Sequence record: MT446390.1
Strand: one strand, 5' to 3'
DNA length: 64,000 nucleotides
DNA from: Escherichia phage TH12
Position 1 is the first letter of the stretch, and each line of letters starts with the position of its first letter. Shown here piece after piece: positions 3,496 to 13,900 of the stretch. Made by a program: the position numbers and the translations under genes. The notes beneath the pieces were generated by a model. The model made no database searches. It was not told the origin of the DNA and saw nothing but the letters and a program-made list of their open reading frames with translations.

Positions 3496-3683
3496 GCTCT
3501 AAAATGTGGATAGGAATATGGTTGCTTAGTATCCCAATGATTTGTATAATATTTTCAATTGTGTTGAGGTACTTATGAAAAATGCACTTCTTATTGTACT
3601 AAAAACAATTTGTGATACTGGTTTTTACATTGCATGTTCGTTCACTGGAACATGGCTGGCTTTAACATATTTTAATGTAATTT

Positions 3684-3725
3684 AATTGTTTACATCACGG
3701 TAGGATTATGGTATAGTAGTCCTAC
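3684..3725 (+). promoter_or_regulatory. early-type promoter with imperfect inverted repeat GTAGGATTA/TAGTCCTAC
   Basis: GTTTAC followed ~17 nt later by TATGGTATAGT; near-copy of cassette at 3176-3212. Confidence 0.4.
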
Positions 3726-3745
3726 TGAAACATGAGGAACACAAA

Positions 3746-3946
3746 ATGGCTAAGCTTTTTAAAGATGTTGAAATTGGTGAAAAATTTGTTCTGAATAATG
3801 GACAGCAGCTTATTCGTGTAGCTTCTATAGCCGGACAAACTCATAACTGTATCGCCCCAACGTGTTGGACTCGATTCTTTATTGAAGATGACACTGAATG
3901 TTTAACTGTTGAAGAGCTTTTTGAACGTTCTGATATGACCGAATAA
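3746..3946 (+). CDS. hypothetical protein (66 aa)
   Basis: ORF with RBS GAGGAA upstream, preceded by promoter cassette. Confidence 0.6.
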   Translation: MAKLFKDVEIGEKFVLNNGQQLIRVASIAGQTHNCIAPTCWTRFFIEDDTECLTVEELFERSDMTE

Positions 3947-4812: not shown

Positions 4813-6138
4813 ATGCAATTGAATTCTCGTAATCTAAAAAGTATTATTGATAACGAAGCCTTAGCATATGCTATGTACACCGTTGAAAACCGTGCAATCC
4901 CAAACATGATTGATGGATTTAAGCCGGTTCAACGTTTTGTGGTTCATCGTGCATTAGATTTGGCTCGTGGTAATAAAGAAAAATTTCATAAACTTGCGTC
5001 AATTGCAGGCGGTGTTGCAGATTTAGGTTATCACCATGGTGAATCTTCTGCACAAGATGCAGGTGCATTGATGGCTAACACATGGAATAACAACTATCCA
5101 CTATTAGATGGTCAAGGCAACTTTGGTTCTCGAACAGTCCAAAAAGCTGCAGCATCTCGTTATATTTTTGCTCGTGTAAGCAAAAATTTCTATAATGTCT
5201 ATAAAGATACCGAATATGCTCCAGCTCATGAAGATAAAGAACACGTTCCACCAAAATTCTATCTTCCTATTATTCCGACAGTTCTTTTGAACGGTGTCTC
5301 TGGTATTGCAACCGGTTACGCAACAAATATTCTGCCTCATAGTTTTAAATCGGTCAAAAAGGCTGTATTACAAGCTCTTCAAGGTAAAAATGTCACTAAA
5401 CCAAAAGTTGAATTCCCGGAATTCCGCGGTGAAGTGCATGAAGTTGATGGGCGTTATGAGATTCACGGAACATATAAGTTCACATCTCGCACTCAAATGC
5501 AGATAACTGAAATCCCATATAAATTCGACCGTGAAACGTATGTGAGTAAGGTTCTTGACCCGTTGGAAGACAAAGGTCTAATCTCATGGGAAGATGATTG
5601 TGGTGAACACGGTTTTGGGTTTAAGGTGAAGTTCCGTAAAGAGTACTCGCTTCCTGATGATGAAGAGCTACGTCATGAAAAAATCATGAAAGATTTTAGT
5701 CTCATCGAACGTCGTTCACAAAACATCACAGTGATTAATGAAAAGGGTAAATTAACGGTCTACGATAACGTAGTGGACTTAATCAAAGATTTTGTTGAAG
5801 TCCGTAAGACTTACGTTCAGAAACGTATTGATAACAAAATCATTGAATCTGAAAAAGCATTTAAACTGGCTTTTGCTAAGGCACACTTCATCAAAAAAGT
5901 TATCAGTGGCGAAATTGTGATTCAAGGCAAGACTCGTAAAGCTTTGACTGAAGAGCTAGCACAAATCGAAATGTATAAAGAACATATCGATAAATTGGTA
6001 GGTCTTAACATCTTCCATATCACTTCTGACGAAGCACGTAAACTAGCAGAAGAAGCTAAAGCTAAGAAAGAAGAAAATGAGTATTGGAAGTCTACTGATG
6101 TTGTGACAGAGTACACTAAAGACTTGGAGGCACTTTGA
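4813..6138 (+). CDS. 52: DNA topoisomerase II medium subunit (gp52)
   Basis: 441 aa; N-terminus MQLNSRNLKSIIDNEALAYAMYTVENRAIPNMIDGFKPVQRF is GyrA/ParC-like and matches recalled T4 gp52 (442 aa). Confidence 0.9.
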   Translation: MQLNSRNLKSIIDNEALAYAMYTVENRAIPNMIDGFKPVQRFVVHRALDLARGNKEKFHKLASIAGGVADLGYHHGESSAQDAGALMANTWNNNYPLLDGQGNFGSRTVQKAAASRYIFARVSKNFYNVYKDTEYAPAHEDKEHVPPKFYLPIIPTVLLNGVSGIATGYATNILPHSFKSVKKAVLQALQGKNVTKPKVEFPEFRGEVHEVDGRYEIHGTYKFTSRTQMQITEIPYKFDRETYVSKVLDPLEDKGLISWEDDCGEHGFGFKVKFRKEYSLPDDEELRHEKIMKDFSLIERRSQNITVINEKGKLTVYDNVVDLIKDFVEVRKTYVQKRIDNKIIESEKAFKLAFAKAHFIKKVISGEIVIQGKTRKALTEELAQIEMYKEHIDKLVGLNIFHITSDEARKLAEEAKAKKEENEYWKSTDVVTEYTKDLEAL

Positions 6139-6214
6139 GTGCCCTAGCCTTAGGATTTCTCGGTGCAATAGCTGCACTAGTGATTTGGCTGTATTGGTTG
6201 GACAAACATGATTA

Positions 6215-6234
6215 GGGAGCTTCGGCTCCCTTTT
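6215..6234 (+). terminator. rho-independent terminator (GGGAGC-TTCG-GCTCCC + T4)
   Basis: GC hairpin with TTCG loop and T tract downstream of gene 52. Confidence 0.6.
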
Positions 6235-6257
6235 GTGCATTTTTTTCTCACAAAACA

Positions 6258-6298
6258 GTTTACATGTGCTTCAAACATGATATTATAGACCTATCAAA
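6258..6298 (+). promoter_or_regulatory. early/middle promoter cassette (GTTTAC ... TGCTTCA MotA-box-like ... TATTATAGACCTATCAA)
   Basis: Near-identical copy at 6579-6619; contains TGCTTCA resembling MotA box plus -10-like TATTAT. Confidence 0.45.
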
Positions 6299-6325
6299 AC
6301 AAAACAACCAAATTGGAGAAATAAA

Positions 6326-6541
6326 ATGTCTAAAATGAAATTAACCCAAAACACAACTACTCGTTTCGGTAAAGTTAAACCTGGTATGAATGCTCTCCGT
6401 AAAGCACTTGTTGAAGAATTAAATTTCTTAGAAGTTGAAATCAATTCTTTAGTGGTTCGCGGTTCAAATGGACATCATTTAGAAAAGCTTCGTTCTAAAA
6501 AGGCAAAACTTATTAGCCTTATTAAAGAAATGAGTTTGTAA
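6326..6541 (+). CDS. hypothetical protein (71 aa)
   Basis: ORF with RBS GGAGAA; leader and first codons (MSK) duplicated from the motA leader. Confidence 0.55.
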   Translation: MSKMKLTQNTTTRFGKVKPGMNALRKALVEELNFLEVEINSLVVRGSNGHHLEKLRSKKAKLISLIKEMSL

Positions 6542-6578
6542 ATTTTACCAGGGCTTTTGAAAAAGAGCCCAAAATAAA

Positions 6579-6619
6579 GTTTACTTTTGCTTCAAACATG
6601 ATATTATAGACCTATCAAA
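6579..6619 (+). promoter_or_regulatory. early/middle promoter cassette for motA (duplicate of 6258-6298)
   Basis: Shares the 31-bp string GCTTCAAACATGATATTATAGACCTATCAAA with the upstream copy. Confidence 0.45.
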
Positions 6620-6643
6620 CAAATACTAATTTGGAGAAATAAA

Positions 6644-7276
6644 ATGTCTAAAGTTACTTACATCATCAAAGCTTCTGAAAACGCTCTGAATGAAAAAACT
6701 GCTGCAATAATGGTTTATATCATTAAGAACAACTTCACCACTGCTGCCAATGTCCGTGAAGCTCTGAAAGCGGAATACAACGCATCAGTTGTTAACTCTA
6801 ACATTGGTGTATTGATTAAGAAAGGTTTAGTCGAAAAATCCGGTGATGGACTTGTAGCAACAGGCGAAGCAATGGATATTATCCAAAAAGCTGCAGACCT
6901 CTTTGCCCAAGAAAATGCTCCAGAACTTCTTCAGAAACGTAACACTAGAAAAGCACGTGGAGTTACTCCTGAAATGCATGAATTAGCAAACTTTGTTTTT
7001 GAAAATATTAAAGATAAAGTTGAAGTTAAAGAAATTGGTGAAAACCGTAGTAACTTAGAAGTTCGATTCGCTAAACGAGTTCTAGGTATTCGTCAGATCG
7101 AAATTCGTCGAGATGGCGCTCTTAGAATCTTTGCATACAACATGTCAGAAACTGAATCAAAGCTGTTTACTTCTCTTGAAAATGATGTTAAGATTAAGAT
7201 CGGTGGTAAATATACCTACATTGACTTCCCTAATGTGTCCAAAGAAATCATTACCCTTGTAACTAACGTACTGTGA
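6644..7276 (+). CDS. motA: middle-transcription activator MotA
   Basis: 210 aa; MSKVTYIIKAS..., NSNIGVLIKKGLVEKSGDGL matches recalled T4 MotA (211 aa). Confidence 0.9.
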   Translation: MSKVTYIIKASENALNEKTAAIMVYIIKNNFTTAANVREALKAEYNASVVNSNIGVLIKKGLVEKSGDGLVATGEAMDIIQKAADLFAQENAPELLQKRNTRKARGVTPEMHELANFVFENIKDKVEVKEIGENRSNLEVRFAKRVLGIRQIEIRRDGALRIFAYNMSETESKLFTSLENDVKIKIGGKYTYIDFPNVSKEIITLVTNVL

Positions 7277-7286
7277 GGAATACATA

Positions 7287-7616
7287 ATGAATAAGCTTAA
7301 TATTATTAACGAACTTCGTAAATGTGCAGAACCTACTCAGGAAGGATGGGATATTTGGTACCACGGGGCTTATTTAGGGACAATTGTAAAGATTAAAGCA
7401 GGCCAATATACGGTTATTCGTGAAAATAATGATGCGCCATTTGGCCTTCGTAAAAACTACATGGCAGCGATCAGTTCATTTGTTGATGCAGCTTACGAAA
7501 TCTATAAAGAAGATTATAAAGAATACCACCAATCACAACCTGTTATTCGTTCGATTGGTGTAAATAAACAAGCACAAAAATCTATTTGGCAACGTATTAA
7601 GGAATGGTTTAAATGA
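7287..7616 (+). CDS. hypothetical protein (109 aa)
   Basis: ORF with RBS; stop overlaps next start (ATGA). Confidence 0.6.
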
Positions 7617-8074
7617 AATCATTTAAAGAACGTTTAGAGCTATTAGATTTGGCCTTGTCTCGTGAGACTCCTGAAAGTCTAGCAGAAAAATTCCAGTCCT
7701 ATGGTTATAATTATTCTGCTGATGATATAATGAATGAAGTTCCTGAAATCTGTTGGCAAACGTGCTATTGGAATAATGACCAAAAAGTTCAACGTGTTAT
7801 AGTATGTGCAGCTAATAGGTTTAAATTGAAGAGCGGTGGAACTCTGATTATTCCTGGAGTTCGTCATTACTCTAAAGATATGGCTGAAGTACTTGATATA
7901 GTTGGTCCTCAATTAGTCTCTCAACAAGTTTGTGGTGACGACCAAGGCTTTATCGACCAATACTCTAATTACTGGACACGTGAAGAAGCAATGGTTATTG
8001 CAACTTATGCTGGACAGGTACGTATTGAACGTGGCGGAAGTGAGAAAGAACTTTATTCAGAGGACCTTTATTAA
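7613..8074 (+). CDS. hypothetical protein (153 aa)
   Basis: ORF translationally coupled to neighbours. Confidence 0.6.
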
Positions 8075-8355
8075 TGAATATTAAACAACTCCAGAAAGAT
8101 GCTATTGAATCACGTATCCAAGATATCAAACGTCTTAATCATATGATGGAAGAAAACTATGGTATGTATGCTAATCAGCCTGGTTGGGATGCTTTAGACC
8201 ATCCTTATTTGGTTAATTTATGTAAAGGTGATACGTTAGCAATTATTCGTGATGGGTTAAAACCTTTCTTGCGTGACATGTATATTAAAATGAACGAAGA
8301 AATTATTAGCTCGTTGCAATATCAATTAAGGAAATTAGATGATGAGAATAATTGA
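8074..8355 (+). CDS. hypothetical protein (93 aa); size and position compatible with Arn (anti-restriction nuclease) but not verified
   Basis: ORF between motA and asiA; T4 Arn is 92 aa in this interval. Confidence 0.5.
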   Translation: MNIKQLQKDAIESRIQDIKRLNHMMEENYGMYANQPGWDALDHPYLVNLCKGDTLAIIRDGLKPFLRDMYIKMNEEIISSLQYQLRKLDDENN

Positions 8356-8566
8356 TTCTAAAGCAGATTATTTTAATTCTGTTAATGATAAGAATAAAGC
8401 TTTAATTCGCCACTTTATTACTGAGATGGGTTATACTGACTCTAAAGATTTGAAAGAGCACATTATCGAATGTTCTGTGGCTAAAAAGTTTTCTTTCACA
8501 GACAAATGTTTAAACGAGGTTATAAATCATTATGAACAATCTTGTAGCAAAACACGATTTCAATAA
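8339..8566 (+). CDS. hypothetical protein (75 aa)
   Basis: ORF, start overlaps previous gene. Confidence 0.45.
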   Translation: MMRIIDSKADYFNSVNDKNKALIRHFITEMGYTDSKDLKEHIIECSVAKKFSFTDKCLNEVINHYEQSCSKTRFQ

Positions 8567-8640
8567 GGCTTCTGTCCATAAGGACAAGAAGAAATCAGAA
8601 CTTCAATCTAAACGCAAACAAAAACATAAGGGTAAAGACT

Positions 8641-8940
8641 ATGTTTACTAAAATCAAAGAAAATCCTGCCACTGAACTTGTTATTCGATGTGAAGAACTT
8701 GCAGAGCTTTATCAGGTTAACCGAGAAGTGTGTCGTAGTGTTATCGTAGATATGGCAGACGAAGTATGTTCTCGTATTCCTTTTAGTGTCGATTTCAATC
8801 ATATGAAGCCTGGTGAAATCACTATCGTCTTTGGTTCTGACTATACTGAAGAACGGGCTCTTAATGTCCTAGAATATGAAATGTCATTCTTCGACATACA
8901 GGACTACATTGATAGTTATAAGGAACAATATGAGTCATAA
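8641..8940 (+). CDS. hypothetical acidic protein (99 aa)
   Basis: ORF with RBS AAGGGTAAAG. Confidence 0.55.
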   Translation: MFTKIKENPATELVIRCEELAELYQVNREVCRSVIVDMADEVCSRIPFSVDFNHMKPGEITIVFGSDYTEERALNVLEYEMSFFDIQDYIDSYKEQYES

Positions 8941-9091
8941 TCTTCAGAACGTAGTAGAGGCCGAACGTGAGCGTGAGGCTTTAATCTATATTGAACTATT
9001 GGCCTCGTTCTTAGCCTTACACTCGTACGAACAGGAAGACTACATTGATTACGTTAAAAGCGTAGAAAAAGCCGTTTACAATCAACACTGA
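8930..9091 (+). CDS. hypothetical protein (53 aa)
   Basis: Internal ATG of ORF-track 8876..9091 overlapping the previous stop; weak. Confidence 0.35.
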   Translation: MSHNLQNVVEAEREREALIYIELLASFLALHSYEQEDYIDYVKSVEKAVYNQH

Positions 9092-9137
9092 TAATGGTAC
9101 TATACTCCTAACAATTAAGTGGAATGAATAAAACGTT

Positions 9138-9410
9138 ATGAATAAAGACATTGAAATCGTACGTGAAATTATTACTATTGCTTCTATTTTGATTAAATTC
9201 TCTAGGGAAGATATTGTTGAAGACCGAGCAAATTTCATCGGATTCTTGAATGAGATTGGAATTAAAAAAGATGGTCGGCAGCTAAATCAGAATTCGTTCA
9301 GAAAACTAATTACAAATTTAACTGCCGAAGAAAAGAAAACACTGATTAGTGAATTCAATGAAGGTTTTGAAAATATTTATCGCCATTTGACGATGTATTC
9401 TAACAACTAA
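9138..9410 (+). CDS. asiA: anti-sigma70 factor AsiA
   Basis: 90 aa; MNKDIEIVREIITIASILIKFSREDIVEDRANFIGFLNEIG matches recalled T4 AsiA (90 aa). Confidence 0.9.
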   Translation: MNKDIEIVREIITIASILIKFSREDIVEDRANFIGFLNEIGIKKDGRQLNQNSFRKLITNLTAEEKKTLISEFNEGFENIYRHLTMYSNN

Positions 9411-10082
9411 TTATTTAGCCCGCCCTAATATCCTTGCTGCTTGGTTGCATATTGCAGCCAAGCGTTCTTCATTTAGCACATCCGATCCCTTATACCAATA
9501 CATAGAAACAGTTCCCGCATATATGTTATCCAAATTGAAGTAAGGACAACTATACATATACGCCAGTTCCGGAGTTTTTGATTTGGTAGGTAAGAAAGCA
9601 AAATCTGTTTTAGAAGTAAAGTGAAGTCCACTTAAATGGACCGAATATTCTGCTGTCGTTTTATCAACAGGAAATCCTCCCATAGATTTTTCAGTTACTG
9701 TGCTAGGTAACTTACCTTCATACGCAATAAGGTCGACGAAATAATTTAGATTTTTAGGTCTGAAAGAATACACCGAACTAAAATCCGCCCTTGATGTGAC
9801 GTGGACTATTTGTAGTTGTTCTAAAGCCGCAGATTCAAATCGTGTATTTCTTTCTTTTTGAATTACTTCTGTGTAAGTATCATATTTCGACCTCACGTAA
9901 TAATCCATAAAAATATTCCCTTTGTACCATATTAGTGCCATTAGGAACAAAAGAACTACAACAGCAACTCTTGAAATAAGAATATTTCCAGAGGCGTTAT
10001 CTTTGAAAATGCGGTCTAGCAACCCAAATAAAATATCACTAGGCGAAAATGATACTTTTGGTGCTGCCATATTACCTCCCAT
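9411..10082 (-). CDS. t: holin T
   Basis: 223 aa; single N-terminal TM plus large periplasmic domain; matches recalled T4 T holin. Confidence 0.9.
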   Translation of the reverse strand: MGGNMAAPKVSFSPSDILFGLLDRIFKDNASGNILISRVAVVVLLFLMALIWYKGNIFMDYYVRSKYDTYTEVIQKERNTRFESAALEQLQIVHVTSRADFSSVYSFRPKNLNYFVDLIAYEGKLPSTVTEKSMGGFPVDKTTAEYSVHLSGLHFTSKTDFAFLPTKSKTPELAYMYSCPYFNLDNIYAGTVSMYWYKGSDVLNEERLAAICNQAARILGRAK

Positions 10083-10089
10083 TTATCAA

Positions 10090-10097
10090 TATTTATA
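10090..10097 (-). promoter_or_regulatory. late promoter TATAAATA for t
   Basis: Minus-strand TATAAATA about 10 nt upstream of the RBS GGGAGG/ATG of t. Confidence 0.5.
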
Positions 10098-10115
10098 ATT
10101 GAGAGGTATTATCGT

Positions 10116-10895
10116 TTAAATCCAGGAGCCGTAGATTGTGCCTGTAGCACCCCATGACGGTGAACTTCCGAATACTGCTCTGCCAGGAGCACCGCCGCCA
10201 GATCTAGATAAGTGATTACCCCATCCATCTCCGCCCCGACCTCCAGCATCCCCGCCATTACCACCGCCGAATTGGGAAGTGTAACCGGCGCCGCCCGGGG
10301 CGTCATAACTAGCATTACCACCAGGCCAATTAACGCCGCCTCCGCCGAGGCCAAATGGTCTACCACCACCGCCACCTGCTGTAGCATTTGGCGCCCAGCT
10401 ATTCTGTAATGACACTGCACCACCTCCGCCACCGCCTGATGCAATAACGCCATAGTTCCAAATACGAAGTCTTCCGCCGATATCATTTTGGATTACATCG
10501 CCACCATTAGTGCCTGGGTTTCCGTTTACAGTACCGTTACCACCTCGTCCCCACATATGAACTCCGCCATGAATATTCAAAGTAACATATTCATTTGGCG
10601 TATCGCCATACATAAAGAATAATGGAACATCTTTACTATATGATACCAAATTTCCGGTGATATTAAACACTATAGGTGCACTACCTGCCTCAAAACATCT
10701 ATCTCGGAACCATTGACCATTGAAGTTATGGTCTGCTCCAAGTGTGTGAATTATTTCTCTTGAACGGCCCGCGAATTGGGACATCCATGAAGGGTTTCCT
10801 AAACGAAGTTCCCTTGAAGCAGCCGTCATCCATCTTTGCCCCGTTTCAGCAACGGCTGAAGTCCCAATCCAACCAGGGATTCCTACTACTGCCAT
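10116..10895 (-). CDS. 38: long tail fiber adhesin gp38, T2/T6 type with glycine-rich motifs
   Basis: 259 aa; N-terminus [11 protein letters not shown]...RWM...[43 protein letters not shown] and poly-Gly blocks (GGGGGG, GGGGG, GGGG) typical of T2-like gp38 adhesins. Confidence 0.85.
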
Positions 10896-10925
10896 ATAAA
10901 CCTCCAGGGCCCGAAGGCCCTTTTA

Positions 10926-13900
10926 TTATTTTATCAATGATTTAATTAATGCTTTCAATTCGGCAATTTCAGATTTCAATTCCTTGATTTCATCTGTATG
11001 CTCGTTTATTGCAGCTGTATTTAAACCAACAATACCGTTATAGTTCAAACGAAGCAGTCCGGTCTCTTTATCTTCAGAAACAAGTTCAGGTAATACTTCT
11101 TGAACTTCCTGAGCAATTAAACCTGCGGACGGTTTAACTTCGTCTGTAACAGAGTTTTTAAGCAGATAAGTATAACCGCCCAATAGTTTAGATTTCTCTT
11201 GAGCGTTCTTAATAAGCTTAATTTCCGACTTACAACGAATATCAGAACGAATATAAACGTCGTTAACATCAATGTTATCACGAACATACATACCTGCATT
11301 ACAGTGGAAGTTAACATCACCGAATGTCTGAGCTAAACCAGGTCTAAAACTAAACACACCTTGGCCGTTTGCATATGCGTTGAAAATACCATCGTTTTCC
11401 CAAAGCAAACCGGTATCGTTATCTCCAAGTACAATACACGGCCCGCCCCATGCAGGGTCACCACCACCAGCTGATACTCTACTGCTCTTAAGTAAGCTTG
11501 GAGCATAAAAAGTGCCGTTATGATGGAATTCATATACAGCTTGTGGGTCGTAACCGTTTTCCTGATTACCTACACGAATAATACCTTGTGCCCATGTATT
11601 AGTAATGCGTCGCATACCAAAATCTACACCAGATATGTATCCTTCATTAGTAATACCGGATTTTCCTTTAATAATAGGATAATAACTATCATTACCAACA
11701 TTACCAAAATCTACAAATACCGGTGCTTCTTGATTCCATTGATTTCCCCAACCACCTCCCTGGTGTGCGGTCCATTGTGTACCGTTTATATGGAGGCGGT
11801 CTCTATTAAAATTAAATGTTCCTTGGCCTTGAGGAGAAAGTGATATTTCTCCGTTATTTGTTATATATACACCGCCTTGTGTAACATAACTGTAAAAACC
11901 TAGACCATTGTCGGCACCGCCTTTACCAATATACCAATTATTGACCCCGGCCGTATCGGAACGAATAAATGATGAATCACTGGCCAAAGGAGGATTAAGA
12001 ACTATTCCAGCAGCATCTTTATTAATCCAAAGAGTGCCGGTCATCGTATCACCTTCTTTGGCAACACGAGTAGCTATTGCATCGCGAATATTAGTTACGT
12101 CGCCTGCAGAAGTAAACGTTTTCCAAATATCCGAGAAAATATTACCATTACGAGCAATAGCAGCTTCACCACCACCGACCAGAACATTATCAGGGAAATT
12201 AACTGTACCATCCATATTAAATCTTGATGTATGGCCTTGTGAACCATCTTCTTTCAGATGATGAATAACGAATGTACCTGATTCAATTTCGGTACCTAAA
12301 GACCAAACAGATTTACCGTTTAAAAACTTCTGTTTAACAATAGGATAATATTTGCTTACAGCATCATCATCAATTTCCTGGAAAATAGGAGCCGCTTGAG
12401 CATATTGAATGTCATAACCGCCGGCACCCGCTCCATGACCAACAAATTTAATATAACCGTTAGCAGCGAACGTATTGTAACTTGATTGTAAATCTGGAAT
12501 AGTAACTTTACCAGTATCTAAAGCCATACTAAATGGGCGAAGTGGACCAATATCGCCATCTTTGCCTTCGCCATAAGCAGTTGGAATAATATGAAGACTT
12601 CCTTCTGAACGTCTAAAAATGGCTCCATAATCTGCGTTCCAAATACGAAGAGCATTCACTGCTCCAGATGAAATTTCACCTGTTGTGTGAACTCCTCTAT
12701 CTCCAGCAGTAACACCAGATGATTCAAATGAACCATTAACGTTCATTTCTACTTCGCCAGTAGTAAGTCTTTGAATATAGCTCATCCAGCTAGTTGCATC
12801 AGAAATTTCCATAATGTTTTTACGGATACCTCCGCTTGGATCAACAAACGTATTACCCCAAACTTTAATATCCATATTATCAACCGAGCTGTATCCTGTT
12901 GTGTTGCCTCTAAACATTAGTGTAGAAGAATTATTTCTACCATCTATATTAACAGAACCGCCAATAACATCAATATTACCTGGAGTAACTAACAAACCGC
13001 CGTGAGTATTAATGTTTGTAGTACCCTTACCGCGAAAATAATGATGATAGTTACCGCCTTGATAATATCCTAAAAGAGTTTGACCGTCACCGTATGCGTT
13101 ATTATCATGGTAAGTAACAACAGTAGCCAAAGCATAGTTTTCTGTCGGTGGCGTTGTCATAAGAAGCCCATCTGGAGAATAACCCATAACCATTTTTCTA
13201 AGGCTTTGTGTTTCTGCAGGGCCGTAGATGAAAGTTCTTGTTCCATTGTTTACTGTATGGAAATATCCATCCTGGTGCCATTTTAACCCGGTGTCATTAT
13301 CGCCAATAGCAATAGAACCTTTACCTAAGGCTGAATATGTCATAGGACTTGATTCCATACCTACTGCAATTGAATGGCCTGCTTGAAGCCCACCGGAATA
13401 AGAAAATGACAACATGTAATCAGTAGGGGTTGAACCAGAATACCAACTGATGCCGTTATTTTCACAAATTTCATGGAGCATTGCGGCCGCCGGGTCGGTA
13501 CGTACGACACGTAAATTATTTTTATCTGTGTTAGAATTATTATTTGCTAATGAATAGATGTCATAATCACCGGCCTTCTTCCCGTCTGTAATGACTTTGT
13601 CAGTCAAAATCTGAGGAGTTGACATAGATTTCCGTGCCGATACTTCAGGTGAAATAAATTGTCCATTGCCTGAAAATGCATAAATGCTTTCGCTACCAGC
13701 GGCGTAGTCTTGAACCCTGATATTAAGTACTTGTGTAGTTAATCCATCATTAGCCGGGGCATAAATGATTCCACGTTCGCGGCTATTGCCATCGAAAAAA
13801 CGAACATGTGCTGTATCTGAACTTTTTGTAATAAGTTCACCGCCTTCAGTCATAATCTGCCCAGCGGCAATAATATCACGAGTTACTCGAGCAATACCAG

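Follow-up and report, generated by a model that had tools for sequence, protein, structure and literature searches.

A probable divergent Arn homolog in the RB69-type arn cluster of Escherichia phage TH12

What do the small, tightly packed open reading frames (ORFs) between motA and asiA of Escherichia phage TH12 encode, and do they form a new set of genes? We examined this in a 64,000-nucleotide (nt) stretch of the phage (MT446390.1), referred to here as the window, in which the island of interest spans positions 7287-9091; the ORF list was made for positions 5500-11000. The interval is likely the RB69/Mosigvirus form of the T-even 'arn cluster', the small accessory genes between motA and asiA, and this is the explanation that best fits the interval as a whole. 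The locus is an ordinary, known cluster; what is new in it is a single divergent member of an anti-restriction family that is itself known. This member is a 99-amino-acid (aa) ORF, the ortholog of the hypothetical RB69 gene RB69ORF259c, and we consider it very probable that both are remote, same-fold homologs of Arn residing in the arn slot.

The slot itself is the same in T4 and in the window. The T4 gene order is arn.1, a 39-aa ORF, arn, asiA.1 and asiA, and the order in the window is arn.1, a 39-aa ORF, the 99-aa ORF, an ORF starting with MSHNL and asiA. Gene maps showed that the segment from the 39-aa gene to asiA is hypervariable across T-even phages, and that most of its versions contain an acidic protein of ~90 aa with a shared C-terminal motif. 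The C-termini of the different types were as follows:

T4 Arn: ..HDYEIEDYFE
Window 99-aa ORF: ..FFDIQDYIDSY..
IME341 type: ..DDFGLEDYID
EcS1 type: ..VCDFEDYL
PEi20 type: ..EDYGLEDY
Moon type: ..ENYGLEDYF

The 99-aa protein contains 21 aspartate plus glutamate residues versus 9 lysine plus arginine residues, with a net charge of -12 and an isoelectric point (pI) of 4.29; T4 Arn has 92 aa and a pI of 4.55. Over its full length the 99-aa protein is 32-34% identical to the IME341 type. A profile seeded with all Arn-slot types recovered 27 clusters, including T4-type Arn (PF22134) as well as the Moon and PEi20 proteins, which are already named 'inhibitor of MrcBC restriction' at NCBI. To avoid circularity, two alignments free of PF22134 were used, one containing the window and IME341 types (A3) and one in which the EcS1, Moon and PEi20 types were added to these (A6). 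When A3 was compared with all PDB sequences, the top match was 3WX4_A, the crystal structure of T4 Arn (E 9.6e-4), and the next match had an E of 0.22. With A6, 3WX4_A was again the top match in the PDB sequences, at E 3.4e-5 and with an end-to-end alignment. A3 was linked to the intermediate types by hhalign with 87% probability. In a fold test against 3WX4, the 99-aa protein showed the three-dimensional fold of Arn, at a sequence identity of 14%.

Several observations weigh against this assignment. BLAST gave no T4 counterpart for the 99-aa ORF, and the single sequence had no Arn match. The protein did not match the Pfam Arn model, PF22134, in hmmscan (E<=0.1), and the window-type homologs P0121-P0128 have no precomputed Pfam assignment, whereas T4-type Arn proteins carry PF22134. 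A narrow T4-Arn hidden Markov model (HMM) did not find the ORF in the window, and direct alignment of A3 with the T4-Arn group by hhalign gave a probability of 26% (P 7e-4). The database homologs of the window protein were all close and confined to Mosigvirus-like phages. In addition, 3WX4 lies within the AlphaFold training data. The 99-aa protein is outside the current PF22134 boundary, and is a remote homolog of Arn rather than a member defined by the model. Searches of the whole window with the T4-Arn HMM and tblastn found no second copy of arn. A match of the 99-aa ORF to the PP7 coat protein was also considered and was attributed to chance, with E 5e-4 to the tandem dimer and E 0.8 to the single copy; it was superseded by the Arn results.

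According to a review (PMC12707154), McrBC is inhibited by T4 Arn, which binds to H-NS as well. It also blocks the PUA-Cal-HAD defence, and a single change, N70S, abolishes this inhibition; T2 Arn differs from T4 Arn in this respect (PMC12871103). By analogy with T4 Arn, the 99-aa protein would probably be an acidic DNA mimic that works as a decoy, binding DNA-binding proteins of the host, either defence or nucleoid proteins. The prime candidate target would be McrBC-type modification-dependent restriction, with the decoy protecting new hydroxymethylcytosine (hmC) DNA. RB69-type phages make hmC DNA. The window protein also differs from T4 Arn (3WX4) beyond the 14% identity: it has an extra acidic C-terminal tail, SYKEQYES, and in the HMM alignment its Thr69 is aligned with N70, the residue that decides PUA-Cal-HAD inhibition in T4. 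Because of the low identity, its target range is probably different from that of T4 Arn, and the pairing of N70 with Thr69 makes a different target spectrum plausible.

It is possible, if on balance unlikely, that the 99-aa protein is a true Arn homolog that has been retargeted, with a main target such as H-NS or a PUA-Cal-HAD-type system rather than McrBC. T4 Arn already has multiple targets, its inhibition of PUA-Cal-HAD is lost by the N70S substitution alone, and the T2 protein differs from it; the Thr69 alignment, the low identity and the very fast evolution of the slot point in the same direction. Against this, protection from McrBC would still be useful to RB69-type phages with hmC DNA. 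We consider it improbable that the 99-aa ORF is instead an unrelated lineage-specific ORFan that displaced arn, with the resemblance to Arn arising by convergence between small acidic alpha/beta proteins with similar acidic-aromatic tails. Such an origin would fit the 14% identity, the 26% hhalign probability, the missing PF22134 match and the negative reverse HMM search, as well as the restriction of close homologs to Mosigvirus-like phages and the clearly different proteins that occupy the hypervariable slot in other phages. We favour remote homology to Arn, to which the PF22134-free profile searches and the fold test both point.

RB69-type phages are on record as having no arn, with the 99-aa gene entered as hypothetical; an Arn assignment of this gene was not found in records or in the searchable literature, including searches for RB69 arn and McrBC. 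Recognition of the Arn fold adds a very divergent variant of a multi-target anti-defence DNA mimic. Such a variant would be useful for mapping how specificity evolves, given that one substitution already changes which defence system is inhibited (PMC12871103).

The 99-aa ORF is placed among the following features, which include the two boundary genes:

6644-7276, + strand: motA, the upstream boundary (Pfam MotA_activ, E 2e-39)
7287-7616, + strand: arn.4 ortholog, 109 aa
7613-8074, + strand: arn.3 ortholog, 153 aa, with an N-terminal helical extension and a C-terminal T4_Y16D domain (PF26092)
8074-8355, + strand: arn.2 ortholog, 93 aa
8339-8566, + strand: arn.1 ortholog, 75 aa
8532-8651, + strand: seventh gene, lysine-rich, DUF7230, 39 aa, pI 10.1
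8641-8940, + strand: probable divergent Arn homolog, acidic, 99 aa (hypothetical RB69ORF259c in RB69)
8930-9091, + strand: AsiA.1-like small acidic protein, 53 aa (RB69ORF258c); the maximal ORF, 8876-9091, is 71 aa
9138-9410, + strand: asiA, the downstream boundary (Pfam AsiA, E 7e-33)

A first-pass annotation of this DNA, made from the sequence alone, had reported six tightly packed or overlapping ORFs on the + strand between motA and asiA, and the ORF list bears out their number of residues, strand, packing and position. The overlaps among the six are 4, 1, 17 and 11 nt. Each of the six matched a PHROG family, with E values from 1e-29 to 1e-70, and all are conserved at the protein level in other T-even phage loci; they are real genes rather than chance ORFs, as both the PHROG matches and the conservation across T-even loci indicate. 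Pfam and NCBIfam gave no named function for five of the six. As a count of the cluster, six is too low, since the conserved 39-aa ORF at 8532-8651 had been overlooked. The cluster thus comprises seven co-oriented genes that overlap or lie almost end to end, in the order arn.4, arn.3, arn.2, arn.1, the 39-aa DUF7230 gene, the 99-aa acidic gene and the 53-aa AsiA.1-like gene.

The 39-aa ORF overlaps the 3' end of arn.1 and the 5' end of the 99-aa ORF, and it is not annotated in the T4 and RB69 reference records. It matched Pfam DUF7230 (PF23876) with 49.3 bits versus a gathering cutoff of 27 (E 5e-13), and also phrog_1359; DUF7230 was matched by all nine of the nine family variants of the ORF. 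An unannotated T4 ORF between arn.1 and arn is 79% identical to it. The comparison set comprised 34 loci, of which 31 were IMG/VR loci fetched around Arn.3 homologs and the others were RB69, ATK47 and T4. The 39-aa ORF was matched in every one of these (34/34, 68-97% identity) and was intact in 32. In most loci it was better conserved than MotA, whose identity was 40-70% once the near-identical RB69-like loci are set aside, and than AsiA (51-74%). Six of the 32 intact loci have GTG or TTG starts, and a Shine-Dalgarno-like sequence lies upstream in the loci that were read. Among 27 distinct sequences, 14, 9 and 33 of 34 codons vary at the first, second and third position, and this concentration at third positions argues that the ORF is translated. 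By tblastn it had a single copy in each of 1,211 phage records, nearly all from T-even-like phages of Enterobacteriaceae; some of these list it as hypothetical.

We conclude that the 39-aa ORF is a genuine coding gene and strongly conserved. It is an ordinary DUF7230 member, and nothing sets the window copy apart from the rest of the family. It is very improbable that 8532-8651 is not a gene and instead represents a conserved RNA, an element for translational coupling, or an anchor for recombination at the border of the variable cassette. The segment does overlap both neighbouring genes, lacks annotation in the T4 and RB69 references, sits precisely where the hypervariable segment begins, and has a long Shine-Dalgarno spacing in the window (~12 nt). 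However, the variation falls mainly at third codon positions, the frame is open in 32/34 loci with ATG, GTG or TTG starts, the product matches a Pfam protein family, and Rfam gave nothing at 8532-8651. As a coding gene, it could specify a nucleic-acid- or ribosome-binding factor. An ArfA-like ribosome rescue factor (lysine-rich tail, PF03889) was considered as a candidate and rejected: the family profile had no PDB sequence match at E<=10, and DUF7230 was the only meaningful Pfam match. A literature search on DUF7230 found nothing, and the presence of this gene in the T4 and RB69 references was likewise not found in records or the searchable literature. The analysis thereby flags a short gene that is missing from the reference annotations of both phages.

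As a whole, the island has been known and annotated before. By megablast, the region 6600-9450 is that of an RB69-like Mosigvirus, with 97.5% nucleotide identity to RB69 over its full length. It matched 279 phage records, the best being Mosigvirus genomes at 97-98% identity, and 147 of the 279 cover at least 80% of the region in one place. The first-pass annotation had called the ORFs unknown, yet all six have been annotated in the RB69 GenBank record since 2003, as arn.4, arn.3, arn.2, arn.1, RB69ORF259c and RB69ORF258c. It had also taken T4 to have only motA.1 and arn in this place. This was mistaken: T4 has asiA.1, arn, arn.1, arn.2, arn.3 and arn.4 between asiA and motA, and motA.1 sits on the opposite side of motA. 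Four of the window ORFs are T4 orthologs in the same order, with 41-79% aa identity by blastp and tblastn. The 93-aa ORF at 8074, singled out as an Arn-sized candidate, is the Arn.2 ortholog (41% identity) and not Arn. The more general idea of an early-strand anti-restriction island survives for one gene, the 99-aa remote Arn homolog with the Arn fold, and not in its other specifics. The island was to count as ordinary if all six ORFs had T4 orthologs of known housekeeping function; all six do have T4 counterparts, and only Arn among these has a known function. Since they are annotated in RB69 and all have counterparts in T4, the ORFs are not new. A novel set of six ORFs without T4 counterparts is hardly credible and already refuted: although five of the six lack a named Pfam or NCBIfam function, all six are present in RB69, four are orthologous to T4 genes, the other two are a remote homolog of Arn and an AsiA.1-like ORF, and most of the segment recurs in the 147 phage records. 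The overall picture of a known, conserved and mostly uncharacterised accessory cluster is unchanged.

The window cluster resembles those of T4 and RB69 in its flanking genes, strand, gene order and compact overlapping layout. Unlike in T4, the arn slot holds a 14%-identical homolog and the asiA.1 slot a weakly similar 53-aa protein. Two further differences concern the upstream genes. In the window, arn.1 begins 17 nt before the end of arn.2, whereas in T4 the two are separated by a 70-nt spacer; and arn.4 and arn.1 are full length in the window (109 and 75 aa), whereas the T4 annotations are truncated (68 and 43 aa). In T4 (NC_000866, 159500-165500, the locus L003), the start codon of the full-length arn.4 frame, at 2545-2874 of the reverse complement, is ATA rather than ATG. 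The full-length arn.1 frame of T4 (L003 reverse complement 3603-3827) is open and conserved upstream, and lacks an ATG. The ATA codon in arn.4 and the lack of an ATG in arn.1 explain the short T4 annotations of these genes. Over the 23 codons of the upstream arn.1 part, T4 and the window have 11 identical, 7 synonymous and 5 non-synonymous codons. With this frame open and conserved in T4, what counts as a '70-nt intergenic region' in the T2/T4 arn operon is homologous to the 5' coding part of arn.1 elsewhere.

Arn.3 is the member of the cluster with the widest family. The window protein is 76% identical to T4 Arn.3 (E 7e-90). PF26092 (T4_Y16D, named after the T4 protein) was present in all but one (P0079) of 120 listed Arn.3 homologs, including a 97%-identical one. 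In a whole-library HMM search, 6,321 cluster representatives passed E<=1e-3, of which 1,971 also passed E<=1e-10, and among 150 matches listed the domain was nearly always at the C-terminal end of the protein. The alignment defined a core of ~90 aa with invariant A66, A67, R84, H85, Q111, G112, F113, D115, R123, A126, Q135, L147, S149 and E150. The conserved motif residues of T4_Y16D, AANR..RH..QGFxD..R..A..Q..LxSE..Y, are present in the window protein, and the C-terminal ..LYSE.LY is nearly invariant. Compared with minimal T4_Y16D members of 85-100 aa, T-even Arn.3 has an extra N-terminal helical extension of ~45 aa; the window protein is an ordinary PF26092 member that nothing sets apart. 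Its predicted model is confident, and no solved structure resembles it. The genes around minimal Arn.3 homologs showed no conserved partner, these homologs lying in ordinary early/replication regions of siphovirus-like contigs; the ~140-aa genes upstream of them are unrelated to one another and to Arn.4. Domain fusions were considered as a clue and set aside, since 20 long family members had no significant second Pfam domain. A literature search on PF26092 found nothing.

Arn.3 is a widespread phage domain with enzyme-like conservation that has no recognised fold or function. As judged from its invariant polar residues and the very large size of its family, it is the best candidate in the cluster for an enzyme or ligand-binding module, and it could be an enzyme with a new fold or a sponge for a signal molecule. 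The further step, that Arn.3/T4_Y16D, the DUF7230 peptide or both are undescribed host-takeover or anti-defence effectors, appears doubtful. For Arn.3 this reading is based on the confident model without a match among solved structures, the invariant Arg, His, Asp, Gln, Ser and Glu residues, and the occurrence in more than 6,300 clusters from many phage types. For the peptide it is based on the single copy in each of the 1,211 phage records and on a conservation that in most comparison loci surpasses that of MotA or AsiA; among the uncharacterised products of the cluster, it and Arn.3 are the most conserved.

The remaining upstream genes are orthologs of known T4 genes. Arn.4 (109 aa) is a basic protein with a pI of 9.2; its identity to T4 Arn.4 is 73%, or 77% when all 109 codons of the T4 DNA are compared (E 1e-59). 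It matched phrog_1594 (E 5e-52) and was found in 34/34 comparison loci. Arn.2 is 41% identical to T4 Arn.2 (E 3e-21) and matched phrog_1844 (E 1e-40), and it is absent from some of the loci. Arn.1 matched phrog_4452 and has a patchy distribution across the loci; its identity to T4 Arn.1 as annotated (43 aa) is 79%, and to 74 codons of the T4 DNA 70% (E 2e-33). None of the three gave a Pfam or NCBIfam match, and their family profiles found nothing below E 0.1 in the PDB sequences. Arn.1-Arn.4 are labelled 'anti-restriction nuclease' in PHROG 4452, UniRef and many GenBank records. This label is a transfer of the gene name and not evidence, and it has no support from similarity to Arn or to nucleases. 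A 2026 preprint on T2 describes the genes as one 'arn operon' in which the functions of arn.1-arn.4 are unknown (bioRxiv 10.64898/2026.06.19.733364). The present assignments correct a misleading situation in which arn.1-arn.4 carry the anti-restriction label by name alone and the real Arn homolog is called hypothetical.

The last ORF of the island is regarded as AsiA.1-like on the basis of its N-terminal sequence. This N-terminus, MSHNLQNVVEAERE, resembles that of T4 AsiA.1, MSHNLEKVIEHNVAQE, with E 0.003 in a database of nine T4 proteins. The two share the N-terminus MSHNL(E/Q)xV.E and the position directly upstream of asiA, and similarity is poor past the first ~20 residues. In an iterative local search, the 53-aa ORF was linked with T4 AsiA.1 as well as with longer MSHNLE.. 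proteins that other phages carry in this slot. The phrog_5245 match covers residues 19-71 of the maximal 71-aa ORF, and the start at 8930 has a Shine-Dalgarno sequence, AAGGA, ahead of it. Since the match starts at residue 19 and the Shine-Dalgarno sequence precedes 8930, the 53-aa form starting at 8930 is preferred.

Signals for expression were sought along the same region. Sigma-70-like sites were detected at 6259-6286, at 6580-6607 before motA and at 9075-9103 before asiA, and none was found upstream of any island gene. Within 7287-9050, the + strand contained only two weak 9-of-12 matches, both inside coding sequence (7776-7803 and 8257-8286). The only terminator-like match on the + strand of the island was a weak 6-bp stem within arn.2. 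The MotA-box pattern of middle promoters had no match in 6000-9500, and Rfam gave one chance-level miRNA match, outside the island. From this arrangement, the island is most likely read as one early/middle transcript continuing from motA. The lack of a convincing internal promoter or terminator and the overlapping junctions suggest co-transcription with motA and translational coupling.

In T2, the host small RNA ArcZ is reported to base-pair with arn.2 at +285..+294 and to shield the transcript against RNase E, which cleaves in the 70-nt spacer ahead of arn.1 (bioRxiv 10.64898/2026.06.19.733364). T4 has a perfect 10-nt ArcZ complement, CCAGGGAAAT, at arn.2 +285..+294. The window cluster belongs to the same operon family as the ArcZ-stabilised T2 operon and contains arn.2; unlike T2 and T4, it has neither the 10-nt ArcZ site nor the spacer. 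An exact-complement search of 7287-9091 found no Watson-Crick complement to the ArcZ seed of at least 8 nt, the longest being 7 nt. At 8310-8360 only GGAAAT is left of the ArcZ site, where it doubles as the arn.1 Shine-Dalgarno sequence, and since arn.1 starts 17 nt inside arn.2, there is no 70-nt spacer or RNase E site. A scan for ArcZ pairing with RNAduplex was non-discriminating (shuffled mean -19.9 vs observed -20.5). As no complement exceeds 7 nt and arn.1 begins inside arn.2, this lineage probably lacks the ArcZ-dependent control known from the T2 arn operon. No mention that the ArcZ module is missing from the lineage was found in records or the searchable literature.

Two IMG/VR loci were mosaic. 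L004 has RB69-like motA and arn.3 (98-99%) together with T4-like arn.2, arn.1, arn, asiA.1 and asiA, and L006 has RB69-like genes except for arn.3 (80%) and arn.4 (87%). This mosaicism places recombination breakpoints inside the cluster.

Other T-even lineages carry extra cassette genes, located in the gap between arn.4 and arn.3 in L011, L018 and L007, and between the 39-aa gene and asiA in L019, L023, L025, L028 and L032. One such gene encodes a 112-115-aa protein beginning MIPMELNWDGEG.., whose N-terminal motif also starts some longer Arn.3 homologs. Another cassette family consists of 101-122-aa proteins ending in ..GFTFTL, some of which have the MSHNLE N-terminus of AsiA.1.

Upstream of motA, a 71-aa basic ORF (6326-6541, + strand) matched phrog_6200 (E 1e-39) and is preceded by the sigma-70-like promoter at 6259-6286. 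It occupies the position of T4 motA.1, to which it is unrelated, and has no annotation in the RB69 record; among the comparison loci it was present only in L002, L015 and L022. Downstream of the island, the guanine-plus-cytosine content rises to 0.56-0.58 at 10100-10550, versus ~0.36 around it, within a 259-aa glycine-rich gp38 ORF on the - strand (10116-10895). The likely source of this spike is the run of GGC/GGT-rich glycine repeats in the gp38 gene.

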